Origin: Patescibacteria group bacterium
Lineage (GTDB): Bacteria; Patescibacteriota; Patescibacteriia; Magasanikbacterales; GWA2-37-8
Assembly (NCBI GenBank): GCA_004321885.1
Contig: SCQK01000014.1
Coordinates: 64,001 to 128,000 of the forward strand
DNA length: 64,000 nt
Reading direction: 5' to 3'
The notes below the pieces were generated by a model. It saw only the letters and a program-made list of their open reading frames with translations, was not told the origin of the DNA and made no database searches. Shown piece after piece: positions 4,362 through 58,982 of the stretch (the stretch's first letter is position 1; every line of letters starts with the position of its first letter). A program made the translations under genes and the position numbers.

Positions 4362-7300
4362 ATGCGAAGAGCGAAAATAATATTTTTCATTATTATCTTC
4401 GCCGCGTTCAGCTCGGCCGCCTTTGGCGGTCGTGTTTTGTCTTTTGACACCAATATCGCTCATCCAAACATCGCGACATTGGCCGTAAAGCTTTACAATG
4501 AGAATTTTGACCCGGATTTAACCGAGGAACAGACGCGTTGGATAGAGCAGGGAGCTGTTGCCGAGGACACGCCCAACCGGTGGTACAACCATTTTTACGA
4601 CCCGGTCTACAATCGTGGCATCTGGTTTGGCAAACAACATTTATCAGCCAAAAATTGGGCTGTTAATCCCCGAGCTCAAACTGGTTTTGCCTTGGGCGAC
4701 AAGAGCTGGCAAAGAGCGCTTGATGATTTTAGAAATAGTGATGAGGAAAAGGCATACAGGGCCCTGGGGCATATTATTCACCTTATTTCAGATATGGCTG
4801 TGCCGGCGCATACCCGAGACGACATTCATCCGCTCGGCGATTCGTTTGAGCAATTTGTGAAAAAGAATTGGGCCAGCGCGACAAAGAATTTGCGCTATGG
4901 AATGATATCTGTATCTGATTTAGATTCAGCTTTTGATTCTGTGGCCAATTATTCAAACAATAATTTTTATAGTGATGATACGATTGAAAATAAAAAATAT
5001 CAGAATCCAGATTTGAATCACATTATACTAAAATATGTGGAAGTTGGAAATGGCATTTCTTATAAATTTTTAGTCAATTCAGTTGGTGGTCAAGAAAGTT
5101 TGCTTTGTAGAACTAATAGCAATAAGAATTGGTTAGACACTCTTGGGGATGACATTCTAAAAGAGTGCAAAGTTGGTGATGATCTCGTTCTCACCGACTA
5201 CTCCCGCCACCTGCTCCCAAAAGCCATCGGTTACAGCGCCGGAATTATTAAACTATTTTTTGACCAAGCCAAGAGTGATAAGGAAGTGGGTAATTTGCCC
5301 GGCAAAAGAACTAGTTTTTCCGGATACCTTGATCAATTTCTTGGTTTCGCTGTCTCGGGAGCGGAAAAATTATACAGCGTGATTAAGATAGCGTTAGGAA
5401 TAGAGCCGGCTTATTCCGAGGGAAGCGCGGAGATTGAGGAACAAGCGCCCTCCCTCCCGCCAGAGGCAGGCAAGCATCAAGGGGAGGGAACGACCACAAC
5501 CACACCAACCACGCCAACCACGACCAACGTCGCGCAGACCACGACCAAACCCAAACCCCCCGCCACCATAAAAAAAGCGGTCGGGAGAAAGACCGGGGCG
5601 TCTGGCGCGCCGGTCGCTGGCTCCATAGTCCCCGACTTAGTCGGGGCTGTGGAGCCCAATGCCAGCACCCTGGCTCCACAGCCTCCTGCGGGGGACAATG
5701 GAGCCAGCCAAGAAGGAACGACGACCACGCCTGTGTATTTTCCTCCATCGTCAAGAGACGGGGGAGCGTATCCGCCAAATACCCCTCCCCTAATAGGGGA
5801 GGGAGATGTTGTGCCTACCACCACCCCGACACCCACCACCACCCCGTCTTCTACAACTACCCCTTCGTCCACCACCACCCCAACCCCCTCCCCCACCACC
5901 ACTCCCACCAGCACTCCGGCTCTGCCACCGCCACCGCTCGTCATCAGCGAAATCGCCTGGGCCGGCACCTCGGCCGCCAGGTCCAACAACGAATGGCTGG
6001 AGCTTTACAACAACTCCACCTCGTCAATAGATTTCACCTCGGGCTGGAAAATTTTTGTTTCCGGCGCCCAGCTCAACATCTCCAATTTTGTTAATCCAGT
6101 CATTTTACCAAAAACATATTACCTGTTGGAACGCACCGACGATTTTACGGTCAAAGAAATTTCCGCGGACGCGATTTACACCGGCGCCCTAAACAATAAT
6201 GGCGCGAAAGTGGAACTCGTCAATCCAAGCGGAGAAACCATAGACACCGTGGACGGCTCCTCGGGCTGGTTCGCGGGTCAGGCCAGTCCCAGTTACGCTA
6301 GTATGGAAAGAAAAGACCTCACCGCCAGCGGTACGAGTCCCGGCAACTGGCAATCCAGCATTGGCGGGCGCGCCACTGGCACGAGCGATGAAATGCCGCC
6401 CAAGCCCATCATGGGCTCGCCCAAACGCCCCAATTTCGGCTACATTGTGCTTACTGGTACCCAAGCCCAAACCACCCGCACACTCACCACAGACAACAGT
6501 CCCTATCTTTTGTGGAGTTACACTATTCCAGCCGGCTTTACATTAAACATCAATCCCGGCGTGGTGATAAAAAGTTACACCCAAAGCGCGGTGATGATTG
6601 TAGATGGGACGCTGAATGTTGGCGGGGGAGACAATAAAGTCATCTTCACCTCGGGCAAAGACCAGTCTTTCACCAGTCCCGACCTCAACCTGATAGACAT
6701 CAATTATCTTTGGACAACTCCCGGGCCGGCTGAAAAAGATTGGCAGGGGCTGTGGTTCAAGCCCGGCTCCCAGGGCAACATCGCCAATACAGAAATCAGA
6801 TACGCGGGCAAAGAGTTTTACCCCACCGGAGGCCCGGCCATGTCCCAGGGCATTCGCGCCGAATCCGGGCTTTCCCTATCAAACTCCACCATCGCCAACT
6901 CCGGCTCCGCGCTTATCTTTCTCCAAAATGCTTCTTCCACCATTACTAACACCAACTTCACCGGCTCCGATCTGGCCATAGAAGCCAACAATTCCCGGCT
7001 CACAATCAACGGCGCGCACTTCACGGGCTTTGGCTCACAGGGCCCTTTGCAAATCAAAGACGCCTGGCCCGAATTTTCCAATCTCACCTACACCACCGGC
7101 ACTGTGCCTTATGCCCGTTTGTACATGGTAAAAACCAGCGCCCCGCAGACCACGGCCAAAAAAGAAATCAATTACCTCTTTGACAACATTGAAGTGGCGT
7201 CTTCCACCACCTTAAACATTGAACCCGGCGCCAACGTCAAAATGACCAACAGCTCCATACTCACGGTCAATGGCGTTCTCAATGCCAATGGCACGCCCAC

Positions 7301-9298: not shown

Positions 9299-11022
9299 AA
9301 AGAAAATATTGGATTATCGGGGGAATAGTCGTGTTGGCCATCGGCGGCCTGGTTTATCGCGGCTACAAAAAAAGCCATCCGCCGGCGCAATACGAAACAG
9401 TGAAAATTCAGCGCGGGGATTTGAAACAGACCGTGGAGGTAACCGGCAAGGTGGAGGCAAACGATGATTTGTCTTTGCGTTTTGAGGTGCCTGGCACAGT
9501 GGGCAATGTGGCGGTAAAAGAAGGGCAGAAGGTTAAAAAAGGGCAGACACTGGCGTCTTTGCGTCTGGCCGACCTCAACGCGGCCGTGGCCCAGGCCGCG
9601 GCCAATTTGAACCAAAAATTAGCCGGCGCCACGCAGTCGGAACGGGATTATTACAAGGCCGTGATGGAACAGGCCCAGGCCGACTGGGATAAGGCCAAAG
9701 TGGACACGGCCGCCAGTATTGCCACAGCCGAGTCCGCGTACATCACCGCCAAAAATAATCTTAAGCTGGCCGAGGGCGGGGAAAACAGCCTCATTGTAAA
9801 TAACGCCTACGACAACGCCATCATCACGGCTCAAACTTCCCTTTCGGTTTTAGACGACGGCCTCACCCAGGCCGACAATATCTTGGGCATAGACAACACT
9901 CTGGCCAACGACAGTTTTGAAAGTTATTTATCTTTGCTTGACCTAAACAAATTAAATTTAGCAAAATCCTCTTATGCCACTGCCAAAGAAGCCAAGGCCG
10001 CGGCGCGCGCCGCGATTTCGGCTCTGGCCGTAAAAGTTTCCAGTCATAGCGATGTGGACAGCGCGCTCGTCAAAGCCGCCGATGCCGCGACCAGGATGAA
10101 TACCTTGCTTTCGCAGGTCTCGGAAGTTTTATACAACACCGCGCCCATGGGTTCGCTGACACAAGCCTCTTTGGACGCCAAAAAAACTACTATTGAAACC
10201 ACGCGCGCCAGCGTCAATGCCCAGTATAAAAAAATAGTGGAGGCCCAGCAGGCTATCGTGGACGCCAAGAGCAGTTATTCAAACTACCAGGTGGCCTATG
10301 ATAAAGCGGCCAAAGATTTAGCTGATGCCAAAGCCGCCGCCGAGAGCGCCCTTAAAATAAAAGAAGCGCTGTACAACCAGGCGTACGCGAATTGGCAGAA
10401 TAAAACTAGCCCCACCCGCGCCGTGGACGTGGCCGCCTATCGCGCCGCTCTGGCCCAGGCCGCGGCCAACAGAAACAAGGCTATCATCGCCGCGCCCATA
10501 GACGGCCAGGTGGCCAAGATAAACAAAAAAGTCGGCGAGCTGGTAACCTCGGCCGACGTGATGATAAATTTGATATCCCCGCATTTTGTGATAAAGGTGG
10601 ATGTGCCCGAGACCGATGTTTCCAAGCTGACCGTGGGCGACCAGGCGGCGATAACCTTGGACGCCTGGGGCAGTGACACAAAATTTTCCGGCGGGGTAAC
10701 GGCAATAGAATCCAATTCCACCGAGATTCAGGATGTGGTTTATTACAAGGTTAAAATTCGCATCATGCCGGCCAGCGCGCCGGTTAAAGCCGGCATGACC
10801 GCGAATATTACCGTGGACACGGATGCGCGCGCCGGAGTTTTGTTTGTGCCCCTACGCTCGGTGCGCACCGATGTGGAAGACAAGCGCTTTGTGAAGGTGT
10901 TAGAGAACGGCGAAGAGAAAGACGTGTACGTGAGATTGGGTTTGAAAGCGAATGAGGGGAAGGTGGAAATTTTAGAGGGGCTGACCGAGGGGCAGGAAGT
11001 GATTCTCTCCATAAAAAAATAA
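9295..11022 (+). CDS. HlyD-family efflux transporter periplasmic adaptor subunit (MacA-like)
   Basis: N-terminal TM anchor, a long Ala-rich coiled coil and a C-terminal beta-barrel. It sits upstream of the ABC ATPase and two FtsX-type permeases. Confidence 0.8.
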   Translation: MKRKYWIIGGIVVLAIGGLVYRGYKKSHPPAQYETVKIQRGDLKQTVEVTGKVEANDDLSLRFEVPGTVGNVAVKEGQKVKKGQTLASLRLADLNAAVAQAAANLNQKLAGATQSERDYYKAVMEQAQADWDKAKVDTAASIATAESAYITAKNNLKLAEGGENSLIVNNAYDNAIITAQTSLSVLDDGLTQADNILGIDNTLANDSFESYLSLLDLNKLNLAKSSYATAKEAKAAARAAISALAVKVSSHSDVDSALVKAADAATRMNTLLSQVSEVLYNTAPMGSLTQASLDAKKTTIETTRASVNAQYKKIVEAQQAIVDAKSSYSNYQVAYDKAAKDLADAKAAAESALKIKEALYNQAYANWQNKTSPTRAVDVAAYRAALAQAAANRNKAIIAAPIDGQVAKINKKVGELVTSADVMINLISPHFVIKVDVPETDVSKLTVGDQAAITLDAWGSDTKFSGGVTAIESNSTEIQDVVYYKVKIRIMPASAPVKAGMTANITVDTDARAGVLFVPLRSVRTDVEDKRFVKVLENGEEKDVYVRLGLKANEGKVEILEGLTEGQEVILSIKK

Positions 11023-11023
11023 A

Positions 11024-11074
11024 CCCCACCCTGCCACCACACCAAAGATTTTGGTGTGGTGGCAGGGGGAGGGG
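11024..11074. repeat. family-B palindromic repeat (CCACCACACCAAAGATTTTGGTGTGGTGG)
   Basis: Perfect inverted repeat between the adaptor and the ATPase. Relatives are at 26630/26728, 41395 and 58424. Confidence 0.7.
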
Positions 11075-11081
11075 TATTTTT

Positions 11082-21632: not shown

Positions 21633-22277
21633 CTATTCCATTAAAATGTAAGACCGAAAGCCGCCTCCATAACTCGATTCCGCGAATTGTTTTACAAAGT
21701 CATTCATCACCCTTCTGGTTGGTTCGTCTTTGATGTTTTCGTGCTGTTTGATCAGGTTGTTCAGCACGAATTTGTCCCTAAAGTCGCCTTTGCTGTTTAG
21801 GTTGGTATTGCCTATGTTGTAATGTTCAAAGAAAAATTGGTGGTCCATCTGGTCTATTATTCTTGCCACTTTCGTCTCGTCCGAATCCCCGTGTTCAAAT
21901 TCGTTGAACAGTTCCTTGAGTTCGCGTCCATCCGGTTCTTCCAGGTAGCCGGCCAAAAGCTCCATCGCTTTTTCTCCAATTTTGTTTTTATATTCGGTAA
22001 GTTCTGGGTAGCGGCGGTGCAAGGGCGCAGAGATATCACCTCCGAAAAGTTCACCCAAATCATGCACCAAGAGCATGGACATTATTTTTTCGCCGTCAAT
22101 TTTTCCGCCCTCCCTCTTTATTTTTTTCAGTAAAAAATAGGCGATAATGCAGGCGCCATAATGATGCTCGGCCAGGGTTTCAACCTCGTGCAGGCGGATG
22201 CCGCCCAAAAGATAGCCGGTGAGCGGCTGTTCTTTGGTGAGTTGTAAGATGGAAAAAAGTTTGACGAGATTTTGCAT
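21633..22277 (-). CDS. HD-domain phosphohydrolase (YfbR-like 5'-deoxynucleotidase family)
   Basis: H...HD...D motifs (LAEHHYGA, LVHDLGELFGGD). The internal ATG at 22275-22277 lies immediately after the tRNA-Lys 3' remnant. The upstream part of the 270-aa track ORF crosses tRNA-like DNA. Confidence 0.75.
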   Translation of the reverse strand: MQNLVKLFSILQLTKEQPLTGYLLGGIRLHEVETLAEHHYGACIIAYFLLKKIKREGGKIDGEKIMSMLLVHDLGELFGGDISAPLHRRYPELTEYKNKIGEKAMELLAGYLEEPDGRELKELFNEFEHGDSDETKVARIIDQMDHQFFFEHYNIGNTNLNSKGDFRDKFVLNNLIKQHENIKDEPTRRVMNDFVKQFAESSYGGGFRSYILME

Positions 22278-22280
22278 ATT

Positions 22281-22299
22281 TGTGACCCGGCTGGGATTT
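22281..22299 (-). repeat. duplicated 3' end of tRNA-Lys (T-arm 3' strand plus acceptor 3' strand)
   Basis: TGTGACCCGGCTGGGATTT equals bases 22471..22489 at the 3' end of the intact tRNA-Lys, which lies 175 bp away. Confidence 0.6.
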
Positions 22300-22473
22300 G
22301 GCCTCGCCTCTCGCTCGCTTCCGCTCGCTCGGGCTGGCCACCGCCTCGCGGTTTGGCTCGCCCATAAGCTCGCCAAACATCGCTCCGGCGTTCGAATCCC
22401 ACCGCGAGCAAAACTATTTGCTCGCTGCCGGTTCCCAAAATTCAAATCCGCCTAATTGCGGATTTTAATTTTG

Positions 22474-22546
22474 TGACCCGGCTGGGATTCGAACCCAGGA
22501 CCTCTTCCTTAAAAGGGAATTGCTCTACCAACTGAGCTACCGGGCC
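22474..22546 (-). tRNA. tRNA-Lys(UUU)
   Basis: Manual cloverleaf: acceptor GGCCCGG/CCGGGUC, D-arm GCUC-AGUUGGUA-GAGC, anticodon loop CUUUUAA, T-arm CUGGG-UUCGAAU-CCCAG, discriminator A. Confidence 0.85.
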
Positions 22547-22634
22547 GTCACTTCACTTTTAACTTATTAAATGATATACTAAATTCACAAGAAAATCAAG
22601 AGTCTGGCGTCGTTAAGACGCTATATTACGTATT

Positions 22635-23207
22635 ATGCTCAATAAAAAGTATTTTCAAAAAGTCCGGGGAGATTTGTTAAATTATGCCGGCGTGCACCGT
22701 GAGGTGATAAAAATTTGCGGTGATGCCCAGCATTTAGCCAAAAAAGCCATTTTTGCCATGCAAAGAGACGGGGGCAAAGACGCGGACAAGCTTTTGGAGC
22801 AGGCGCGCGCGCTTTTGGCCGGTCTGCAAAAAAAGCACGCCAAAGACAGCCGCGTGTTTGACGAGGGCGCCTACAAAGCGGCTATGGAGGAGTTCGCGGA
22901 AGCGGCGCTGTTTTCGGAATATTTGCGGGGCGAAGAAATGGGTGAAATAAAAAATTTAAACGTCAGTTCGGAAAGTTTCGTCGGCGGTTTGTGTGATGTG
23001 CCGGGCGAACTCTTGCGTTATGCCATCAAGTCGGCCACGGAAAAGGATTTCAAAAAAGTAAAAAAATGTTTTGACGCGGCCGATGCTGTTTTGCGTGAAT
23101 TAATGGACATGGACTTGACCGGATACAACCGCCAGAAATTTGACCAGGCCAAACAGGCCTGGTACAAGCTGGAGCAGGTGGCGTATGAGGTGAGCATGAA
23201 GGGGTGA
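22635..23207 (+). CDS. hypothetical alpha-helical protein
   Basis: 190 aa. No confident family assignment. Confidence 0.5.
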   Translation: MLNKKYFQKVRGDLLNYAGVHREVIKICGDAQHLAKKAIFAMQRDGGKDADKLLEQARALLAGLQKKHAKDSRVFDEGAYKAAMEEFAEAALFSEYLRGEEMGEIKNLNVSSESFVGGLCDVPGELLRYAIKSATEKDFKKVKKCFDAADAVLRELMDMDLTGYNRQKFDQAKQAWYKLEQVAYEVSMKG

Positions 23208-24499
23208 GTATGAAGAGAATGTTTCATTTGTTAATCGCGTGGCTGGCCTATTGGTTTTACGGCCGGCCGGCGAGAAAATTGATTGTGGTGGGCGTTACCG
23301 GCACCAAGGGTAAATCCACCGCCTGCCGGCTCATCGCTTCGGTGATGGAAGCCGGCGGGCACAAAGTCGGTCTGCTTACCACGGTGGAGTTTCAAATAGC
23401 GGACAAGCGCTGGGCCAATGACAAAAAAATGACCATGCTCGGGCGCGGGCAGATTCAAAAAATGCTGGCGGAAATGGTGAAAGCTGGTTGCCGCTATGCC
23501 GTGGTAGAGACATCGTCAGAGGGAATTTTGCAATTTCGGCATTATGGTTTGAATTACGACATCGCCGTGTTCATGAATTTGGGCGAAGAGCACAGCGAAC
23601 GTCACGGCGGATTTGCCAATTTGAAACGTGATAAGGGAAAAATGTTCGCCGGTCTGAACCGGGCGCGCCGCAAAATTATCGGCGGCAAATCAGTGCCTAA
23701 AGTTATCGTGGCAAACGTTGACGATGAAAACGCGAAATACTACATGTCTTTCGCGGCTGATGAAAAATACGAATTTGGAATGCGCGACGCGAACATTACA
23801 AAGAGCGATGAAAGCGGCGTGGAGTTCGCGGCGCAAAATGTAAAATACAAAATAAATTTAGTGGGTGAGTTCAATGTTTATAACGCCTTGGCCGCGATAG
23901 CCGTGGGCAAGTCGCAAGGAATAAGCGAAGCGCAAATCGCGGCCGGATTGGCGAGCGTGAAACTGGTGCCGGGCAGGATGGAGTTTATAAACGAAGGGCA
24001 GGATTTCAAAGTGGTGGTTGACTACGCTCATGAGCCGATGAGTTTGACCGAACTATTCAAAACTTTGCGCCGGCTGATTGGGCCGCAGAACAAAATTATC
24101 GCCGTGGTCGGCTCGGACGGCGGCGGCCGCGACAAAGGCAAGCGCGCTAAAATGGGCGAGATAGCGGGCCGGCTCACCGACCGCGTGGTTATCACTGATG
24201 TAAATTGTTTTGATGAAGATCCCAAGTCCATTGCCGAGATGCTCGCGGCCGGGGCGCGCGCGGCCGGCAAAACAGAGAGCATTGATTTGTTTATAGAGCT
24301 GGACCGTGCCAAGGCGATGGAAAAAGCAATGTCGCTGGCCGGCGCTGGCGACGCCGTGGTTATCACGGCCAAAGGCACCGAGCAGTGGATTGCCGTGGCC
24401 AAGGGCAAGAAAATTCCGTGGGACGACAGAGAAGTGGCGCGAAAAATTTTGAATCAAATACCCAGCCCAAGCAAGTGTATTAGTGTGATTAGTGAATAA
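23204..24499 (+). CDS. Mur ligase family protein (MurE/MurF-like UDP-N-acetylmuramoyl-peptide ligase)
   Basis: Mur ligase P-loop VGVTGTKGKST. Middle and C-terminal Mur ligase domains present. 431 aa. Confidence 0.75.
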   Translation: MSMKRMFHLLIAWLAYWFYGRPARKLIVVGVTGTKGKSTACRLIASVMEAGGHKVGLLTTVEFQIADKRWANDKKMTMLGRGQIQKMLAEMVKAGCRYAVVETSSEGILQFRHYGLNYDIAVFMNLGEEHSERHGGFANLKRDKGKMFAGLNRARRKIIGGKSVPKVIVANVDDENAKYYMSFAADEKYEFGMRDANITKSDESGVEFAAQNVKYKINLVGEFNVYNALAAIAVGKSQGISEAQIAAGLASVKLVPGRMEFINEGQDFKVVVDYAHEPMSLTELFKTLRRLIGPQNKIIAVVGSDGGGRDKGKRAKMGEIAGRLTDRVVITDVNCFDEDPKSIAEMLAAGARAAGKTESIDLFIELDRAKAMEKAMSLAGAGDAVVITAKGTEQWIAVAKGKKIPWDDREVARKILNQIPSPSKCISVISE

Positions 24500-24512
24500 G
24501 ATTAGTGGTTCT

Positions 24513-25151
24513 ATGTCTCTCATTAAAAAAATCCAGCCGCGCGAGGGCGAGCTCGTGGTGCGCGCGGTCTATCGCTACCAGCTGACAAACTGGTGGAAGT
24601 ACATGCTGGGTTTCGCGCTCTTGTTCGCGGCCTCGTTTTTCATGTTTCGGTTTTTTTCCTGGGGGCTTTTCGGTTACGGGCTTTTCGGCGTTTGTGTTCT
24701 TGTCGGTGCCATGTTCATTTTAAGAACATACATATTCAATCGCACGAATTGCCTTGTTATCACCGACCAGAGGGTCGTTGACATCAATCGCGTCAGCATG
24801 TTTGACGAGGTGATTTCTTCGGTCGGGCATCATGATATTTTGGACGTTTCAGCCAGGCGCAACGGCATTTTGGAAAATATTTTCAATTACGGCGGCATCA
24901 GCATTCATACCAAAAACAGCCAGTTCGCGCTGGATATCGTGAAAGTGCGCCGTCCGATTGACGTGCAGGCTGTCATTTTGGAGCTGGGCGACCGCCACTT
25001 GCGCGCCCGCGCCGCGAGCGATTCGGCCGCCGTTTGCCGCGGCTTTATCAAAATAATTCCCGAACTCTCGCAGAAAGACCTTATAGCTATCGGCAATTTG
25101 ATAAATGAACAGATAGATAAGGTTTCGCCTTTCGGAGAGCGTCAAATATGA
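24513..25151 (+). CDS. bacterial PH-domain (DUF304/YdbS-like) membrane protein
   Basis: Two TM helices followed by a bPH_2-like region. Confidence 0.55.
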   Translation: MSLIKKIQPREGELVVRAVYRYQLTNWWKYMLGFALLFAASFFMFRFFSWGLFGYGLFGVCVLVGAMFILRTYIFNRTNCLVITDQRVVDINRVSMFDEVISSVGHHDILDVSARRNGILENIFNYGGISIHTKNSQFALDIVKVRRPIDVQAVILELGDRHLRARAASDSAAVCRGFIKIIPELSQKDLIAIGNLINEQIDKVSPFGERQI

Positions 25152-25570
25152 CGAGACAAGATCGGGGCTGGAAAAAAATTTTTAATTCGCGCTTGTTTTT
25201 GTTCGCTTTGACAGGCGCGGCCGTGTTTGTAATTTTTGTTTACGTCAAAACTTATTATCAGGACTTCTTGGTGCGCCAGGAAATAGCGCGCCTGCAGGAA
25301 AGCGCCGCTGTTTTGCAGGCCAGAAAATTGGAATTGGCCCAGGCCTTGCAATACGCCAAATCCAGCTCTTTTGTGGAGGAAAAAGCGCGCACCGAGCTGA
25401 ATATGGCCAAGCCGGGCGAGCGCGTTTTGATTATCCCGGATGCCGCGGCCGGTCCGGCCGGCGTTAACGGGGAAAGCGGACAAAAAATTTATGGACAAGC
25501 CGGGAAAACTGTGGTACAATCGTCAAACGAATCAAATTTTTACAAGTGGTGGAAATTTTTTACAAGATAA
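25148..25570 (+). CDS. septum formation initiator family protein (FtsB/DivIC-like)
   Basis: Single TM plus a coiled coil (QEIARLQESAAVLQARKLELAQAL). 140 aa. Confidence 0.5.
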   Translation: MTRQDRGWKKIFNSRLFLFALTGAAVFVIFVYVKTYYQDFLVRQEIARLQESAAVLQARKLELAQALQYAKSSSFVEEKARTELNMAKPGERVLIIPDAAAGPAGVNGESGQKIYGQAGKTVVQSSNESNFYKWWKFFTR

Positions 25571-25580
25571 AAATTAAATT

Positions 25581-26594
25581 ATGCAAGAGCAAAACATGTC
25601 AGGAGGAGCGGAAAATTTTAATCAGGAGAAAAAATTTAACGGCAAAATGTTTTTGCTGGGTCTCTTGGGATTTTTGGCTTTGGCTTTGGCCGCGGCGCTG
25701 GCCGTGGGCATTTACCGCGTTTACGCCAAGGCGGCCACAGACGGCTTTACCCTGACCGTGGCCAGGGTTTTACGTTTGCCCGCGTTTAAGGCGGATGACA
25801 AGGCCGTGCTGTACGTGGATTATGCCGATGACCTGCGCGCCATTCGCGCGATGAGAGACTTTGACAAGAAAAATAACGGCGAAAACGCCGAGCTCACGGA
25901 CCAGCAGATGTCGGACCAGGTTTTGTGGCGACTGCTGAATAATGTTTTGCTGGACAAAGCCGCCAAAACATATAATTTGAAAGTGCAGGAAAGCGATTTG
26001 CGCGATTTGAAGCGCCAGGTGATGCAGAATTTCAAGAATGAAGACGAAGCGAATAAGGAAATTAAAGAAAGATACGGCTGGGATTTTGCCACCTATCAAA
26101 AAAAGGTGATGAGCCAGTATGTCTTGCAAAGCAAGCTTGACCAGGAGGTGCAGGGGGATAAAAAATTGCTTGACGAACAGTTTGTTTTGGCGAATAAAGT
26201 ACTGACCGAGGTAAAGGGCGGGGCGGATTTTGCCGAGCTGGCGAAAAAATACGGGCAGGACGGCACGGCCGCGGCCGGGGGCGATTTGGGCTGGTTTGCC
26301 AAAGGCGAAATGGTGCCGGCGTTTGAAACCGCCGCGTTCGCGCTAAAGAAAGGCGAGCTGGCCAAAGACCCGGTAGAAACCGAATTTGGTTTTCATGTTT
26401 TGAAAGTGACTGACAAGAAAACCGAGAAGAAAAAAGACGCCAAGGGCAAGACAACCTCGGTGGCGCAAGTGCGAGCCAGTCATATTCTTTTCCGTCGGCC
26501 CAACGCGTCGCAATATCTGGACAAGCTGGCGCGGCAGGCCAATTTACATTTATATATAGCCGTGCACGACCCGTTTGCCGGGTTGAAGAAATAA
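25581..26594 (+). CDS. peptidyl-prolyl cis-trans isomerase, parvulin type (SurA/PrsA-like)
   Basis: TM anchor. PpiC domain (GGDLGWFAKGEMVPAFETAAF...FGFHVLKV). Confidence 0.75.
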   Translation: MQEQNMSGGAENFNQEKKFNGKMFLLGLLGFLALALAAALAVGIYRVYAKAATDGFTLTVARVLRLPAFKADDKAVLYVDYADDLRAIRAMRDFDKKNNGENAELTDQQMSDQVLWRLLNNVLLDKAAKTYNLKVQESDLRDLKRQVMQNFKNEDEANKEIKERYGWDFATYQKKVMSQYVLQSKLDQEVQGDKKLLDEQFVLANKVLTEVKGGADFAELAKKYGQDGTAAAGGDLGWFAKGEMVPAFETAAFALKKGELAKDPVETEFGFHVLKVTDKKTEKKKDAKGKTTSVAQVRASHILFRRPNASQYLDKLARQANLHLYIAVHDPFAGLKK

Positions 26595-26635
26595 TTGGAG
26601 CGGGATACGAGAATCGAACTCGCATCTCTTGCTTG

Positions 26636-26748
26636 CCCCCACACCAATAATATTGAGCGGACGATGGGAATCGAACCCACGCCTCAACCTTGGGAAGGTC
26701 GCATACTACCATTATACTACGCCCGCGTATCGCACTATTGGTGTGGGG
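26636..26748 (-). mobile_element. palindromic-repeat-bounded insertion carrying a complete tRNA-Gly(CCC), flanked by 5-bp direct repeat CAAGC
   Basis: Terminal inverted repeats GCCCCCACACCAATA / TATTGGTGTGGGGGC (family B). CAAGC is present on both flanks (26631..26635 and 26749..26753). Confidence 0.55.
26656..26726 (-). tRNA. tRNA-Gly(CCC) (inner, intact)
   Basis: Acceptor GCGGGCG/CGUCCGC, anticodon stem CGACC/GGUUG with loop UUCCCAA, T-arm GUGGG-UUCGAUU-CCCAU, discriminator U. Confidence 0.85.
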
Positions 26749-26792
26749 GCTTGGGAAGCAAGCATACTGCCACTGTACTAATCCCGCGATTG

Positions 26793-26865
26793 AGCCGACC
26801 ATGGGACTCGGACCCATAACCTACGGTTTACGATACCGTTGCTCTACCAGTTGAGCTAGGTCGGC
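26793..26865 (-). tRNA. tRNA-Thr(CGU)
   Basis: Acceptor GCCGACC/GGUCGGC, D-arm GCUC-AACUGGUA-GAGC, anticodon stem ACGGU/ACCGU with loop AUCGUAA, T-arm UAUGG-GUCCGAGU-CCCAU... (T-loop variant). Confidence 0.8.
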
Positions 26866-26913
26866 GTTACTGCATACATTTTGCCAGAAAAACTGGCGCG
26901 GGTCAATGACCTG

Positions 26914-26922
26914 TGGTATAAT
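26914..26922 (+). promoter_or_regulatory. extended -10 promoter element (TGgTATAAT) upstream of ftsE
   Basis: TGGTATAAT lies 17 nt upstream of the ftsE ATG at 26939. Confidence 0.4.
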
Positions 26923-26938
26923 ATCGTCATCCCGTCGT

Positions 26939-27619
26939 ATGATTACCATCAGCGGAGTGACAAAAATTTATCCCACCGGCACGCCCGCTTTGCGCAACGT
27001 GAACCTGCATATCAATGCGGGCGATTTTGTTTCTATCGTGGGCCAGAGCGGCACCGGCAAATCCACGCTGGTGAAATTGATGATTGCCGAAGAAAAGCCG
27101 TCCAAGGGCACGATAGACATCGGCGGCTGGGATATCACGCGCATCAGGCGCGGCGACGTGCCGTTTTTCCGCCGGCAAATCGGCGTGGTCTTTCAGGATT
27201 ACAAGCTTCTGCCGAAAAAGACCGCCTACGAAAACATTGCCTTTGCTTTGGAAGTGGCCGGCGAAACTTATCGCCGCATTCACAAAATCATTCCGCAGGT
27301 GCTTGACATCGTTGGTCTCTCGCACAAGCACAACAGCTATCCTTTTCAGCTTTCCGGCGGTGAACAACAGCGCATCGCCATCGCGCGTTCTTTGGTGCAC
27401 CGGCCTAAAATCATCGTGGCCGACGAGCCCACGGGAAATTTAGACGCCATCAACGCGGCCGAGATTGTTTCTATCCTCAAAAAAATAAACGAATTCGGCA
27501 CCACGGTTTTACTGGTCACGCACAACCGCGAAATCGTCAATCATTTGCGCCGCCGCGTCATCACCCTGCACGGCGGAGAAATCGTCAACGACGAACAGGA
27601 AGGAAAATACCGTTTATAG
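26939..27619 (+). CDS. ftsE: cell division ATP-binding protein FtsE
   Basis: Walker A GQSGTGKST, signature LSGGEQQRIAIARSL, Walker [12 protein letters not shown]. Immediately upstream of ftsX. Confidence 0.9.
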   Translation: MITISGVTKIYPTGTPALRNVNLHINAGDFVSIVGQSGTGKSTLVKLMIAEEKPSKGTIDIGGWDITRIRRGDVPFFRRQIGVVFQDYKLLPKKTAYENIAFALEVAGETYRRIHKIIPQVLDIVGLSHKHNSYPFQLSGGEQQRIAIARSLVHRPKIIVADEPTGNLDAINAAEIVSILKKINEFGTTVLLVTHNREIVNHLRRRVITLHGGEIVNDEQEGKYRL

Positions 27620-27620
27620 T

Positions 27621-28529
27621 ATGCTCGCTCTACTGCGCATCATCAAATACGCCCTGCAAGACATTTGGCGCAACATCAGTCTGTCGTTCATGACGGTTTT
27701 TATTTTGGTGCTGATGCTACTTTCGGTAAACACCCTGTGGTCACTGGATGTTTTAACCAAAGAAGCCGTGGGCCTGGTGAAAAAACAGGTTGACGTCAGC
27801 TTTTATTTTTACGCCGGCGCCAATCCCAAAGACGTGGCCGAGATAAAAAAATATCTGGGCTCGTTTCCCGAAGTGGTTTCAGTGGCGGTGCAGTCGCCCG
27901 AGGACGTGCTGAAATCTTTTAAGGAGCGGCACAAAGACGAAAGCGACGTGGAAAACGCTCTGACCGAATTGGGCGAAAATCCGTTCGGTCCCACGCTCAC
28001 CGTGAAAACCAAAGAGCCGAAGGATTACCAGAAAATAATGACGGCGATGAACGTGCCTGAGTACAAAAATTTGATAGAAAAGCGCAGTTTTGAGAATCAC
28101 GAGGCGGCCATAGAACGTTTGCAAAACATTATCAACCGCATAGAAAAAATCGTGCTGGGCCTCACCGCCATGTTCGCCATTATTTCTTTCTTGATTATTT
28201 TCAACACCATCCGCGTGGCCATCAACACCCAGCGCGTGGAAATCAGCATCAAGCGCCTGGTGGGAGCCAGCAATTGGTTTATCCGCGGGCCGTATATAGT
28301 GGAGTCGTTTTTATTTACCTGCCTAAGCGTGGCGGCCACCGTCTTTTTGGTTTTTTTCGCTTTGCAATACCTGGACCCTTATTTGGCCGCTGTTTTGCCC
28401 GCGGGTTCATCCTTGACAAATTACTACAATTCGCATATATTCGTCCTGTTCGGCGTGCAAACAACGGCCGTGCTCCTGCTTACTATCGCTTCCAGCGTTT
28501 TGGCGATGAGGAAGCAGTTGAAGGTGTAA
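27621..28529 (+). CDS. ftsX: cell division permease FtsX
   Basis: TM1, a periplasmic domain and three C-terminal TMs. One-base gap from ftsE. Confidence 0.85.
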   Translation: MLALLRIIKYALQDIWRNISLSFMTVFILVLMLLSVNTLWSLDVLTKEAVGLVKKQVDVSFYFYAGANPKDVAEIKKYLGSFPEVVSVAVQSPEDVLKSFKERHKDESDVENALTELGENPFGPTLTVKTKEPKDYQKIMTAMNVPEYKNLIEKRSFENHEAAIERLQNIINRIEKIVLGLTAMFAIISFLIIFNTIRVAINTQRVEISIKRLVGASNWFIRGPYIVESFLFTCLSVAATVFLVFFALQYLDPYLAAVLPAGSSLTNYYNSHIFVLFGVQTTAVLLLTIASSVLAMRKQLKV

Positions 28530-28530
28530 T

Positions 28531-28601
28531 TCCGGGGTCGTCCAATGGCAAGACAGAGGCCTTTGAAGCCTCTTATCCAGGTCCGAATCCTGGCCCCGGA
28601 A
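28531..28601 (+). tRNA. tRNA-Gln(UUG)
   Basis: Acceptor UCCGGGG/CCCCGGA with the Gln-type U1-A72 pair. Anticodon stem GAGGC/GCCUC, loop CUUUGAA. T-arm CCAGG-UCCGAAU-CCUGG. Short 3-bp D-stem. 71 nt. Confidence 0.65.
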
Positions 28602-28658
28602 CACAGTTAATTGTGCAGTCGCTTTTAAGGCGGCTTTTTGGTATAATGCCAGAATCGT

Positions 28659-29111
28659 ATGGAAATTAATTATTCAAGAGCCAACAGGCGCGATAAGCAA
28701 GATGTTTATGAGCTTAGCTTGTTGTTGAACAAAGGGGACGATACCAAAACAACCAAAGACATAGAAGAATCTGTTAATAGGGCGCTGAAAAATAATTTGG
28801 TGTGGTCGGCGAAAGACGAAGACAGAATCATCGGTTATGTTCTTTGTGAATTGTTTGATGAGACCCAATTGAATTTTCCGAACTCAATTTTTATTTCCGA
28901 ACTTTATGTAGTTGACGCGTTTCGCAAGCAAGGAGTTGGTAAAGAGCTCGTTAAAATGGTGCTATCCAATAAATTTCCAAAAAAGTATTACTATTTTTCC
29001 GTAACACACGATCCTAAGGCGTTTTATTTAACTGATTTTTATAAATCCTGCGGGTTTGAAGAAAAGGGCATAACGAATGCGGGAAATATAAAATTAACGA
29101 GAAAAATATAA
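28659..29111 (+). CDS. GNAT family N-acetyltransferase
   Basis: Acetyl-CoA-binding motif VVDAFRKQGVGKELVKMV (Q/RxxGxG/A). 150 aa. Confidence 0.75.
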   Translation: MEINYSRANRRDKQDVYELSLLLNKGDDTKTTKDIEESVNRALKNNLVWSAKDEDRIIGYVLCELFDETQLNFPNSIFISELYVVDAFRKQGVGKELVKMVLSNKFPKKYYYFSVTHDPKAFYLTDFYKSCGFEEKGITNAGNIKLTRKI

Positions 29112-41370: not shown

Positions 41371-41440
41371 CCTCTCCCCTTTACAAGGGGGAGGCTTGTC
41401 ACCACACCAAAAATTTTGGTGTGGTGACAGAGAGGGGGTA
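41371..41440. repeat. composite family-A plus family-B palindromic repeats
   Basis: CCTCTCCCCTTTACAAGGGGGAGG followed by CTTGTCACCACACCAAAAATTTTGGTGTGGTGACAGAG. Confidence 0.7.
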
Positions 41441-41736: not shown

Positions 41737-41861
41737 GTTAATTAGCTCATTCTATCTTAACAGATTATAATTTTTTGTCCATAATTGACATTTTCGCTAT
41801 TTTTTTCTATAATAGTTGTCATTCCGGACTTGATCCGGAATCCAGCTCCTTTGAAAATAAA

Positions 41862-41905
41862 TTCCGGGGTAGCGCTCCGCCAGCCGGCGGAGGTAGCGCA
41901 GTTGG
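41862..41905 (+). pseudogene. truncated tRNA-Asn-like 5' fragment with 17-nt hairpin insertion
   Basis: UCCGGGGUAGCGC equals tRNA-Asn positions 1-13. Then the hairpin UCCGCCAGCCGGCGGAG. Then GUAGCGCAG, which matches tRNA-Asn 17-25, before the sequence diverges into the GIY-YIG ORF. Confidence 0.5.
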
Positions 41906-42156
41906 CTGTGTATACTGTTTACGCTATTTACAATCAAAAAAACGATAAAATTTATATTGGACAAACAAAAGACATGGCCGAACGATTAAGGTTGCATAAT
42001 GAAAAAATCCTTCTTGGTTATACTTATAGATTTGATGGAAATTGGAAATTAATTTATAGTGTACAGATCGAGAATAGACAAAAAGCTTTACAAAGAGAGA
42101 GACAACTTAAAAGTTTTAGAGGCAGAGAATTTATAAAACAATTTATTCCGGGGTAG
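41902..42156 (+). CDS. small GIY-YIG nuclease family protein (COG2827/YhbQ-like), TTG/GTG start
   Basis: VYTVYAIYNQKNDKIYIGQTKDMAERLRLHNE (GIY-YIG..R..HN) and a downstream Glu (RERQLK). GGAGGT Shine-Dalgarno sits 7 nt before the TTG at 41902. The stop TAG lies inside the first 10 nt of tRNA-Asn. Confidence 0.65.
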   Translation: MAVYTVYAIYNQKNDKIYIGQTKDMAERLRLHNEKILLGYTYRFDGNWKLIYSVQIENRQKALQRERQLKSFRGREFIKQFIPG

Positions 42157-42218
42157 CGCAGCGGTAGCGCAGAGGACTGTTAATCCTTTGGTCGTGGGTT
42201 CGAATCCCACCCCCGGAG
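42147..42218 (+). tRNA. tRNA-Asn(GUU)
   Basis: Acceptor UCCGGGG/CCCCGGA, D-arm GCGC-AGCGGUA-GCGC, anticodon stem GAGGA/UCCUU with loop CUGUUAA, T-arm GUGGG-UUCGAAU-CCCAC, discriminator G. Confidence 0.85.
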
Positions 42219-42220
42219 CA

Positions 42221-58153: not shown

Positions 58154-58708
58154 TTAGAGCCTGTCCCGAACTTGTTTCGGGAGGGAGGATAGAGGAGGGA
58201 GTATGTGTATTTTTCTCTTGTTCCCTCCCGCGTATTCAATTCTGACGGTTATTATTTTCGGCCCTTGGCCGATATTTTTCAAAAGCTCTTTTATTTTCTC
58301 CGGCCACTCAATCGCGCAAATCGTATCCGGCCTGCCCAAATAATCCAGCGCGCCGATTTCCACAAGTTCGTGCTCATTTTTTAGCCGGTAGGTATCTATA
58401 TGGACGAATTTTTGTGTCCCCCTGCCCCCACACCAAAATTTTTGGTGTGGGGGCCTGCCCGAGGGGGACTTTGAGGGGGGTGGGAGCAAGTACACATTCA
58501 TCAACGCGAACGTCGGACTGGTAATTTTTTCTTTGACGCCCAAGCCGGCGGCAATGCCTTTCACCAATGCAGTTTTGCCCGCGCCCAGTTCGCCGTAAAG
58601 CAATAAAATATCGCCGCCGCGCAATTTTCGCGCCAAAGCCGCGCCAAACGCAAATGTTTCTTTTTCGTTTTTCGTGATAATTTTTTGATTGTTTTGACGG
58701 GTTGACAT
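58154..58708 (-). CDS. tsaE: tRNA threonylcarbamoyladenosine biosynthesis protein TsaE
   Basis: P-loop GELGAGKT and SPTF motif. ATG at 58706-58708. Contains a ~35-aa in-frame repeat-encoded insert (58415..58485). Confidence 0.8.
   Translation of the reverse strand: MSTRQNNQKIITKNEKETFAFGAALARKLRGGDILLLYGELGAGKTALVKGIAAGLGVKEKITSPTFALMNVYLLPPPSKSPSGRPPHQKFWCGGRGTQKFVHIDTYRLKNEHELVEIGALDYLGRPDTICAIEWPEKIKELLKNIGQGPKIITVRIEYAGGNKRKIHILPPLSSLPKQVRDRL
58424..58454. repeat. family-B palindromic repeat in-frame within tsaE (GCCCCCACACCAAAATTTTTGGTGTGGGGGC)
   Basis: Encodes PPHQKFWCGG within TsaE. Perfect 14-bp arms. Confidence 0.7.
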
Positions 58709-58982
58709 AGAAAAGCGATTACCTGTAATATATAGATGGTGGGCGCGGAGCGGCGGAAAAAATGTTCTACAACTTTTTTTCATAGGTTCGCCAATATCTG
58801 TTTGGCCCTTGGGTCAAACGTGCGGCTTACCACCTACTATCACGGGACACGTGACGCCGCTTGCGCGCTTAACCCTTTTTTGATTTTACAGTAAAACTGA
58901 AAAAAAGCAACGGGTTATACTGCGTATAGCCCGTTCTCGCTCGGAAACGCAAAATTAAAATTTTGCGTTTCGCTCGCTCGAA

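Follow-up and report, generated by a model that had tools for sequence, protein, structure and literature searches.

A tRNA-Gly(CCC) gene nested within another tRNA-Gly(CCC) gene in a Patescibacteria genome: a probable hairpin-bounded replacement cassette

Positions 26596-26787 of a 64-kb stretch of contig SCQK01000014.1 from a Patescibacteria genome (the window, 64,000 nucleotides in all) contain a tRNA-Gly(CCC) gene that is split by a 113-nt insert, and the insert carries a second tRNA-Gly(CCC) gene between two inverted arms. It is probable that the insert is a palindromic cassette, similar to the Rickettsia palindromic elements (RPEs) and to MITEs (miniature inverted-repeat transposable elements), which brings a xenologous tRNA-Gly(CCC) in the sense orientation and compensates for the resident gene that it splits; the outer copy would then be a fresh pseudogene and the insert no intron. 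That the insert replaces the resident tRNA-Gly is very probable.

Anatomy and ancestry of the two tRNA-Gly copies

The earlier note on this DNA had described the region at 26596-26787, and its coordinates and sequence proved exact to the base when they were re-read. The features of the nest are as follows, in reading order.

26787 to 26749, minus strand: 5' part of the outer tRNA-Gly(CCC), GCGGGATTAGTACAGTGGCAGTATGCTTGCTTCCCAAGC (from the sequence, and from ARAGORN on the joined halves)
26750 to 26736, minus strand: left arm GCCCCCACACCAATA, perfect 15/15 pairing, a member of the arm family ..CCCCCACACCAAWA
26735 to 26727, minus strand: 9-nt leader GTGCGATAC, from the left arm to the inner tRNA
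26726 to 26656, minus strand: inner tRNA-Gly(CCC), 71 nt (ARAGORN; Rfam tRNA, 63 bits, E=2.7e-11)
26655 to 26650, minus strand: trailer CAATAT
26649 to 26635, minus strand: right arm TATTGGTGTGGGGGC, perfect 15/15 pairing with the left arm
26635 to 26596, minus strand: 3' part of the outer tRNA-Gly(CCC), CAAGCAAGAG...ATCCCGCTCCA

The 5' part of the outer gene runs from the 5' strand of the acceptor stem through the D arm, the 5' strand of the anticodon stem and the anticodon loop to the second base of the 3' strand, and it ends in the first copy of a direct repeat, CAAGC (26749-26753). The 3' part, which in full reads CAAGCAAGAGATGCGAGTTCGATTCTCGTATCCCGCTCCA on the minus strand, starts with the second copy of CAAGC (26631-26635), after which come the remaining anticodon stem, the variable loop, the T arm, the 3' strand of the acceptor stem, U73 and an encoded CCA, and its end lies 2 nt from the stop codon of a peptidyl-prolyl isomerase (PPIase) gene on the opposite strand. 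The insert is thus located on the 3' side of the outer anticodon arm. The two halves had been proposed to form a canonical tRNA-Gly(CCC) interrupted by a gap of 113 nt, and this is borne out: when the 113-nt insert and one CAAGC are removed, 74 nt remain, which ARAGORN identifies as tRNA-Gly(ccc). Joined directly, the junction reads ...TTCCCAAGCAAGAG..., and the joined gene has a full cloverleaf with U8, A14, G18G19, U33, T54T55C56, A58, U73 and CCA all in place.

The inverted-repeat analysis agrees with the earlier description of perfect 15-nt inverted arms at the borders of the insert (15/15). Perfect inverted repeats in the flanks, when these were shuffled 2000 times, had at most 10 nt and none reached 15, and a chance pairing of the arms is excluded. 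The direct repeat that had been taken for a 5-bp target duplication is present, but its length can be read in two ways because the repeat overlaps the arms, either as 4 nt (CAAG, with the element as CCCCC...GGGGG) or as 5 nt (CAAGC).

The second, intact tRNA-Gly(CCC) with the acceptor GCGGGCG inside the insert was recovered by both ARAGORN and Rfam. Its acceptor strands are GCGGGCG/CGTCCGC, the discriminator base is U and CCA is not encoded; the predicted cloverleaf, the invariant bases and the Gly identity set (G1:C72, C2:G71, G3:C70, U73, C35C36) are all present. When ARAGORN and Rfam were run on the window, only this inner gene (26655/6-26726) and a tRNA-Thr(CGT) were called at the site, and the outer tRNA-Gly remained uncalled. 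Since tRNA finders report the inner gene only, nests and their pseudogene halves go unseen.

The insert is built in two layers. Without the leader, the inner tRNA and CAATA, it reads GCCCCCACACCAATA-T-TATTGGTGTGGGGGC, which is a tight hairpin like that at 58424-58454 in the window. The CAATA of the trailer is a second copy of the 5 nt at the end of the left arm and looks like a duplicated hairpin apex. Analogous duplications are found in the nests L090, L110 and L115 (loci are given by their L numbers), and across nests the tRNA is placed at the apex of the hairpin, with the short apex duplications CAATA, AAATTTT and AAAAA. Leaders of 5-9 nt are likewise present in other nests with arms of the CCACACC type.

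The host is a metagenome-assembled genome (MAG) of the Patescibacteria, or candidate phyla radiation (CPR). The PPIase is identical to the protein with the locus tag EPN28_04215, and its nearest relatives belong to Candidatus Magasanikbacteria, at no more than 60% identity. The neighbours are bacterial housekeeping genes, namely those for the SurA-like PPIase, ftsE/ftsX, a Mur ligase, guaA and a MiaB-like enzyme, and the order PPIase - tRNA-Gly(CCC) - tRNA-Thr(CGT) - ftsEX - tRNA-Gln is conserved. Relatives of the locus were sought by a profile search with a PPIase alignment, in which the generic rotamase motif dominated, such that only about 10 of 80 loci were relatives. The comparison of orthologous loci that the earlier note had suggested revealed the uninterrupted gene: 15 other lineages have a single, continuous tRNA-Gly and no flanking inverted repeats. 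The joined outer gene is 93% identical to the uninterrupted orthologue at the same locus in L182, 92% in L005 and 90% in L006, all with the acceptor GCGGGAT. The inner gene is only 72% identical to the outer one, and is closest to the tRNA-Gly of other lineages (L173, 85%; L004, 83%). Judged by these identities, the outer gene is shown to be the resident orthologue and its relatives represent the empty site, while the inner gene is a xenologue, that is, the allele of another lineage.

26793 to 26865, minus strand: tRNA-Thr(CGT) (ARAGORN, Rfam), 5 nt upstream of the outer tRNA-Gly
26878 to 26906, minus strand: sigma-70-like promoter TTGACC-17-(TG)CAAAAT upstream of tRNA-Thr (consensus match only)

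The tRNA-Thr is probably the first gene of the transcript that includes tRNA-Gly. No promoter-like site was found on the minus strand inside the insert, and with the candidate promoter placed upstream of tRNA-Thr, the inner gene is presumably read from the tRNA transcript of the host.

Nested tRNA genes and hairpin arms in other genomes

Ten independent nests were identified, with the isotypes Gly, Thr (twice), Arg, Val, Pro (twice), Ile, Ala and Asp.

Window: Gly(CCC), split on the 3' side of the anticodon arm; outer gene intact
L173/L174: Thr(CGT), in the closest relative of the window genome and in the neighbouring gene of the same locus; outer gene intact (L173)
L153: Ile(GAU); outer gene intact
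L115/L140: Ala(CGC); outer gene with a U33C change (L115)
L085: Arg(GCG), split at the T loop; outer T loop without T55C56
L110: Pro(UGG), split in the anticodon loop; outer acceptor and anticodon stems mismatched
L115/L140: Pro(CGG), split in the anticodon loop; outer T arm or anticodon arm lost (L115)
L010: Thr(CGT), same locus as in the window, in a third lineage; outer T arm or anticodon arm lost
L022: Asp(GUC); outer gene barely recognisable, a bare remnant
L090/L123: Val(CAC), split in the D loop

Five metagenomic elements with CCACACC-type arms carry a tRNA, and every time their flanks are pieces of the cognate tRNA (in L085, L090/L123, L110 and, for Pro, L115/L140). A generic search, for any tRNA with flanking inverted repeats followed by in-silico excision, added five nests with arms that are not of the CCACACCAA type (L173/L174, L010, L153, L022 and, for Ala, L115/L140), of which the arm in L010 is related and four are unrelated. 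The inner tRNA is co-oriented with the outer one in 10/10 nests, and the insertion points are in, or at the edge of, cloverleaf loops. Six outer genes could be reconstructed by joining the halves by hand, Gly(ccc), Thr(cgt), Ile(gat), Ala(cgc), Arg(gcg) and Val(cac), and all six have exactly the anticodon of their inner gene; in the Ala nest of L115, G3:U70 is retained in both copies. Such strict cognate pairing implies a targeting principle. Flanking arms of at least 10 bp were present only at nests (10/10) among the 91 tRNAs in all loci, a set that contained no free-standing arm-tRNA-arm cassette, and in none of about 75 elements did a cargo other than tRNA interrupt a tRNA. Where the locus was sampled regardless of arms, 3 of 28 Gly/Thr genes were nests. 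That the arms are native leader and trailer stems was rejected, as un-nested tRNAs have no flanking inverted repeats beyond the control.

The inner Thr of L173 is 97% identical to the ordinary tRNA-Thr of L004 and 70% identical to its own outer gene, and the inner and outer genes of L085 differ by compensatory pair changes in the acceptor and T stems. By sequence identity, these comparisons show that the cargo of the nests is foreign. The inner genes score 62-72 bits against the Rfam tRNA model in all nests, and the outer genes range from intact to a bare remnant, as listed above. Decaying outer genes next to intact inner genes suggest that the outer gene is dead from the insertion onwards and that the inner gene takes over, and that the nest in the window is young. 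Genes of minimal, single-copy tRNA sets would still be replaced in place by foreign alleles, with the decaying outer copies as datable scars.

Some of these nests have further features of their own. The left arm of the Ala(CGC) nest in L115 (at about 208-330, likewise in L140) is split by a 44-nt insert (CGATCATT...AATGATCG), which is itself bounded by inverted repeats and flanked by the 4-nt direct repeat CGAT, and represents a third level of nesting. The Ala and Pro nests of L115/L140 are located less than 600 nt apart. The contig with the Pro(UGG) nest also contains a group I intron (L110, 2876-3205; Rfam, 62 bits), which fits an origin of this contig from the Patescibacteria.

The arms of the insert belong to a wider hairpin family, which is common in Patescibacteria. 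When other copies of the element were sought, the arm sequence was found five times in the window against 0.09 expected; the element copies number four and have unrelated interiors of 1 nt, 3 nt or a tRNA. The three copies outside the nest are solo hairpins.

11015 to 11081: solo hairpin with arms ..TGCCACCACACCAAA, intergenic, between an HlyD-like gene and an ABC ATPase gene
41397 to 41429: solo hairpin TGTCACCACACCAAAA-N-TTTTGGTGTGGTGACA, at the 5' end of the open reading frame (ORF) for a leucine-rich repeat (LRR) protein
58421 to 58489 (core 58424-58454), minus strand: solo hairpin in tsaE, arms 14/15 identical to those of the nest

The tsaE gene (58154-58783, minus strand) contains a palindromic block of 69 nt in frame, which corresponds to 23 extra residues, LLPPPSKSPSGRPPHQKFWCGGR. 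The insert covers residues 99-121, between the conserved motifs SPTFALMNVY and HIDTYRL, and on either side of it residues 17-98 and 122-197 are matched by PDB 6NAK_D; in solved TsaE proteins, a single residue takes the place of the 23.

Public metagenomes were scanned for the two arms separated by 71-101 nt, and 89 stretches were retrieved, compared with a handful expected by chance, with diverse cargo; many of them are from 0.1-um groundwater fractions. The dominant arm class has the 18-nt terminal consensus TTTACCCCCACACCAAWA and very diverse interiors. The interior of the elements varies from 1 nt to more than 100 nt, and the arms alone are conserved. Among 41 family members, no consistent fixed target duplication and no TA or TTAA target was found, and TTAA repeats were rejected as a target duplication since they merely reflect palindromic TTTA/TAAA ends. 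A scan of viral contigs gave a single chance match to the arm pair, in a giant-virus MAG and without a tRNA. Two other identities were considered for the hairpins and rejected: near-identical pairs of loci are whole reverse complements and never inversions of the cargo only, as an inverton would require, and the hairpins lack the U-tract of a terminator, with one copy inside a coding region.

The Rfam search of the cargo classes retrieved no family but tRNA, also for the conserved structured cargo of the 'aaattcCCACACC' class. Members of the class with arms after AAATTC (L094, L105, L106, L118, L120, L127, L130, L131, L133 and L134) have a conserved, GC-rich and highly structured cargo of about 75 nt (CCCCACCGCAAGCGGTGGGG...), without a match in Rfam, which could be an undescribed small RNA. 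In L108 (at about 390-470), L160 (2694-2866) and L159 (5266-5362 and about 5554-5640), the CCA end with which the arm starts is that of an intact tRNA (Phe, Leu), in the layout ...CCTCGGCA-CCA-CACCAA-cargo-TTGGTGTGG-T-GCCGAGG-CAC, such that the inverted repeat includes an inverted copy of the 3' acceptor strand of the tRNA itself; in L159, a right arm also abuts the 5' end of a tRNA-Cys. The conserved core of the arms may have arisen at the 3' end of a tRNA.

An element is also located near the 3' end of the gene for the N-terminal subunit of a split transketolase in three loci (Pfam, 2e-59; PDB 6YAK_A, 2e-70).

L136, 2330-2430: transketolase-tail cassette
L097, 2083-2175: transketolase-tail cassette
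L122, 1940-2041: transketolase-tail cassette

The left arm is translated as PPTPKE, and the cargo codes for ...MALRELRTLGGKIKSEHE*, which matches the native C-terminal helix in the alignment. Downstream of the right arm comes the original tail that was displaced; it is intact in L136 (...MALNELRTLEGKIKSEHQ*) and in L122 (...MALKELRTLGGSIREE*), and is deleted in L097. Homology between cargo and flanks was significant in the gene-interrupting copies only and absent in about 60 of 71 elements, which are intergenic. The rule is that a gene-interrupting element carries a substitute for what it disrupts. Because the arms tolerate translation in tsaE and carry a protein tail in the transketolase gene, the phenomenon reaches beyond tRNAs.

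Origin of the cassette and competing explanations

In the scenario that we favour, the locus would be transcribed from the promoter upstream of tRNA-Thr, and the arms would pair as a 15-bp helix, by which the inner pre-tRNA would be set off. RNase P, 3' processing and CCA addition would release the inner tRNA, which would now do the work, and the outer halves would never be rejoined, leaving a very young pseudogene. The cassette would be self-compensating, and tolerated in an essential single-copy gene since the substitute comes along with it. In the predicted fold, three cloverleaves are kept, including the acceptor, D and T arms of the outer gene, and the long arm helix is stacked on the outer anticodon stem. 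The arms appear to insulate the inner fold of the window nest, with a pair probability of 0.87 compared with 0.70 for shuffled arms.

We propose tentatively, at a little short of an even chance, that the nests and the transketolase cassettes represent an undescribed class in the Patescibacteria, consisting of self-compensating, hairpin-bounded cassettes about 100 nt long that bring along a xenologue of the tRNA gene or the segment for a protein C-terminus that they interrupt, and which would be delivered specifically to the cognate target by a homology-guided and transposase-independent process and occupy about one in ten tRNA genes in some lineages. The mechanistic part, that homology between cargo and target guides the delivery, as opposed to random transposition followed by selection, we hold with somewhat more reserve, as possible. 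Incoming foreign DNA could, for example, pair with the resident gene; in one possible route, the incoming single strand would be folded as a panhandle, its loop would pair with the resident gene, and it would be ligated into a nick in one of the loops of that gene. If true, the class would represent a new kind of selfish element, one that breaks an essential gene, stands in for it and so becomes indispensable, and also a new route of horizontal tRNA replacement. As for the targeting mechanism, the chance that it is of a new kind is substantial.

Several observations weigh against this reading as a whole or in part. The window outer gene has no defect but the insert, which fits recency and would equally fit a maintained function, and the inner copy is the presumed working gene, whose role as the source of the mature tRNA we infer from the sequence. 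The insulation of the inner fold by the arms was unsupported in three other nests tested; as a general requirement for folding, it was rejected, since it holds for the window nest only. Target duplications vary from 0 to 5 nt across nests, with 4-5 nt in the window and 0 in L173, L153 and L115-Ala. In the 64-kb window and 583 kb of arm-bearing loci, the search gave neither an enzyme that would move the cassettes nor an autonomous element, in the form of an ORF between arms spaced by 0.3-4 kb. There is maybe no single mobile family, as CCACACC-type arms are present in five nests (by ascertainment), a related arm in one and unrelated arms in four. Cassettes can also land at non-cognate sites, as indicated by L088 (7897-7996), where the transketolase-tail cassette is present ectopically and in decay, inside the apex of a hairpin from another family (CCCCGTTAGAGAA...TTCTCTAACGGGG). 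Homology-guided targeting rests on the 10:0 association and not on observed intermediates, and the nest in the window rests on a single assembly.

The earlier note had named, as one of two options, a MITE-like element carrying a replacement tRNA into its cognate gene. The inverted-repeat element and the cognate replacement stand, with support from the resident outer gene, the empty sites in relatives and the decay of outer genes; the MITE label goes too far, as no transposase partner was found in the window and the arm-bearing loci, the interiors are unconserved, the duplications are of variable length and the arms of other nests are unrelated. An ordinary MITE that had captured a tRNA-Gly and inserted at random, with the cognate and sense match as mere survivorship because all other insertions were lethal, is an unlikely explanation. 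The perfect 15-bp terminal inverted repeats with a 4-5 bp direct repeat at the locus, the recurrence of the arms with varied cargo in the window and in many metagenomes, and the ectopic cassette in L088 would all be in line with it, and selection must remove non-complementing insertions in any case. However, each of the ten tRNAs with flanking arms interrupts a cognate gene and no free-standing one was seen, an association that random transposition leaves unexplained and for which random insertion with selection is insufficient: intergenic landings should vastly outnumber hits in a 75-bp target, and a homology-dependent step is therefore likely. Nor does this explanation account for the inconsistent target duplication (0 nt in L173, L153 and L115-Ala, and the 4-nt CGAT of the nested insert in L115), the lack of an ORF-bearing copy in the 583 kb of loci and the window, the low copy number per genome or the unrelated arms of four nests.

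The second option of the earlier note was an unusual non-canonical intron, in which case the insert would be removed, the outer halves would be ligated or held together as a split tRNA, and both tRNA-Gly copies would be functional. The halves are flawless here and CCA is encoded, the predicted fold retains the outer acceptor, D and T arms with the arm helix on the anticodon stem, the insert positions (D loop or stem, anticodon loop, T loop) recall those of archaeal non-canonical introns, and Patescibacteria are rich in tRNA introns (PMC13011429). Against this, no match to Intron_gpI was obtained at the gathering threshold or at E<=1 in the region 22000-29000, whereas the same model detects an intron in L110, and there is no group II match in Rfam here either; the 113 nt, of which 71 nt are tRNA, are too short for a ribozyme core. 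The junction forms a 7-nt/2-nt internal loop (a 5-nt bulge in the minimum free energy structure) followed by a continuous helix of 15-18 bp, and not a bulge-helix-bulge. The tsaE and transketolase copies are read through in frame and so are kept in the RNA, the outer genes of other nests lack loops, stems or whole arms, and release of the inner tRNA by RNase P/Z would leave two unligated pieces. The intron is thus rejected as the explanation of the insert, with very little probability left to it.

It is even less probable that the resident tRNA-Gly was copied into itself, for example by replication slippage on the cloverleaf or hairpin template, and that the copies then diverged. Identical blocks of 43 nt (L085) and 27 nt (L110) in the inner and outer genes, and the extra identical tRNA-Gly 3' end near the tRNA-Gly gene of L004, could be read in this way. 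Yet the inner gene is 72% identical to the outer one, which in turn is 93% identical to orthologues in other genera, and already a small sample sets the inner Gly apart from the outer gene and its orthologues. The compensatory differences in both copies indicate that each evolved as a working tRNA, the inner Thr of L173 is 97% identical to the gene of another lineage, and the arm family is found elsewhere in the genome.

An assembly or amplification artefact, a chimeric joining of the tRNA-Gly genes of two strains in the MAG, is the least credible of these explanations: although the genome is metagenome-assembled, tRNA words are common to other CPR genomes in the sample and contigs of the only independent assembly from the source run (Logan, SRR8426592) end at 26624 (L002) and 26820 (L001), inside the 3' half of the outer tRNA-Gly and inside tRNA-Thr, a chimera needs common k-mers and no word longer than 8-9 nt is common to the inner and outer genes, while the arms measure 15 nt, all too short for a k-mer assembler, the symmetry is exact, with a direct repeat and an exactly restorable outer gene, the arms are also present in frame in tsaE, and three other nests with the same architecture recur in two independent assemblies each (L090/L123, L115/L140 and L173/L174), which argues against an artefact. 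The break at 26624 implies that another sequence in the sample agrees with the outer T arm and acceptor over 30 nt or more before it diverges; this sequence could be a related strain or an alternative allele.

Known systems and the surrounding locus

The palindromic elements of Rickettsia are read through in frame within protein genes (PMC1458961). The window family is similar to the RPEs in that both are short palindromic repeats with an unknown mechanism of mobility that have spread in a reduced genome, both also occur in an RNA gene, and both are tolerated as in-frame peptide inserts, here in tsaE and in the transketolase N subunit. It differs in the host phylum, and in that the arms alone are conserved. 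To our knowledge, RPEs do not carry a functional gene or a segment that replaces what they interrupt. The resemblance is best taken as an analogy of function only, since homology would be unexpected across phyla.

With MITEs, the element has in common the terminal inverted repeats, the small size, the absence of coding capacity for a transposase and the short direct repeat at the locus. It differs from them in that no matching autonomous element was found in the window and the arm-bearing loci, the duplication is not fixed, the interior is unconserved and the copies are few. Moreover, the cargo here is a working gene, cognate to the target, and the arms vary between nests.

Phages and islands that integrate into tRNA genes also interrupt a tRNA or protein gene and carry a substitute, and the displaced segment stays beside it and decays; the transketolase case mirrors their replacement of the 3' end exactly. 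These elements are kilobases long and encode an integrase, and they replace the 3' part alone via a direct-repeat att core. The insert described here differs, as it has about 100 nt, no ORF, inverted arms with a direct repeat of 4-5 nt, and a complete nested tRNA. Insertions that carry a spare part are so far known from large integrase-encoding elements, and not from hairpins of 100 nt.

The non-canonical introns and the split or permuted tRNAs of archaea (Thermoproteales, Nanoarchaeum) are likewise located at varied sites in the D, anticodon and T regions and have complementary sequences next to the break. Archaeal tRNA introns need a bulge-helix-bulge, a splicing endonuclease and a ligase, and the interrupted gene is the functional one. 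In contrast, the host here is a bacterium, there is no bulge-helix-bulge, the interrupted gene decays and the working tRNA is in the insert. The group I introns that Patescibacteria have in their tRNA genes are self-splicing ribozymes of more than 200 nt, placed in the anticodon region and missed by standard annotation (PMC13011429). They have the phylum, the kind of target and the oversight by standard tools in common with the nests, but the insert lacks a ribozyme core and has no match to an Rfam intron. This 2026 survey of tRNA introns in Patescibacteria reports group I introns only and mentions no hairpin, palindromic or nested inserts (PMC13011429). No description of cognate tRNA-in-tRNA nests was found in the searchable literature. 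A hairpin of about 100 nt together with a whole, cognate gene as the replacement is found in none of the RPEs, MITEs, integrative elements, archaeal introns or split tRNAs.

The tRNA locus has been rearranged beyond the insertion. Both tRNA-Gly and tRNA-Thr are on the minus strand in the window, yet their order after the PPIase gene is still Gly and then Thr. Most relatives have the two genes on the plus strand, and in L009/L011 the block is simply inverted (compared: L003-L007, L173, L176 and L178-L182), such that the gene order in the window needs two inversions or a swap. In L004 (5071-5182), a second, identical 3' end of tRNA-Gly(CCC) (GGTTCG...GATTCCCTTCACTCGCTC) is located downstream of the intact gene and is split in the T loop by a structured insert of 66 nt; this extra 3' end may be the remnant of an older replacement.

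A few other features of the window involve tRNAs or RNA processing. An 18-nt sequence similar to a T arm (22384-22401 compared with 22483-22500) is found inverted at a distance of about 80 nt from tRNA-Lys(UUU), where an HD-domain ORF has its 5' end; Rfam gave no tRNA remnant there at E<=1. Beside the Mur ligase gene is one for a translin-family protein (22635-23207; Pfam, 8e-17), an arrangement that is kept in L176. Translin is unusual in bacteria and is tied to RNA and tRNA processing in eukaryotes. At 41785-42156, an ORF with a GIY-YIG nuclease domain ends on the start of an uninterrupted tRNA-Asn(GUU) gene (42147-42219). The tRNA-Asn genes of Patescibacteria often contain group I introns (PMC13011429), and from its domain and position the ORF may be a free-standing gene similar to those for homing endonucleases.

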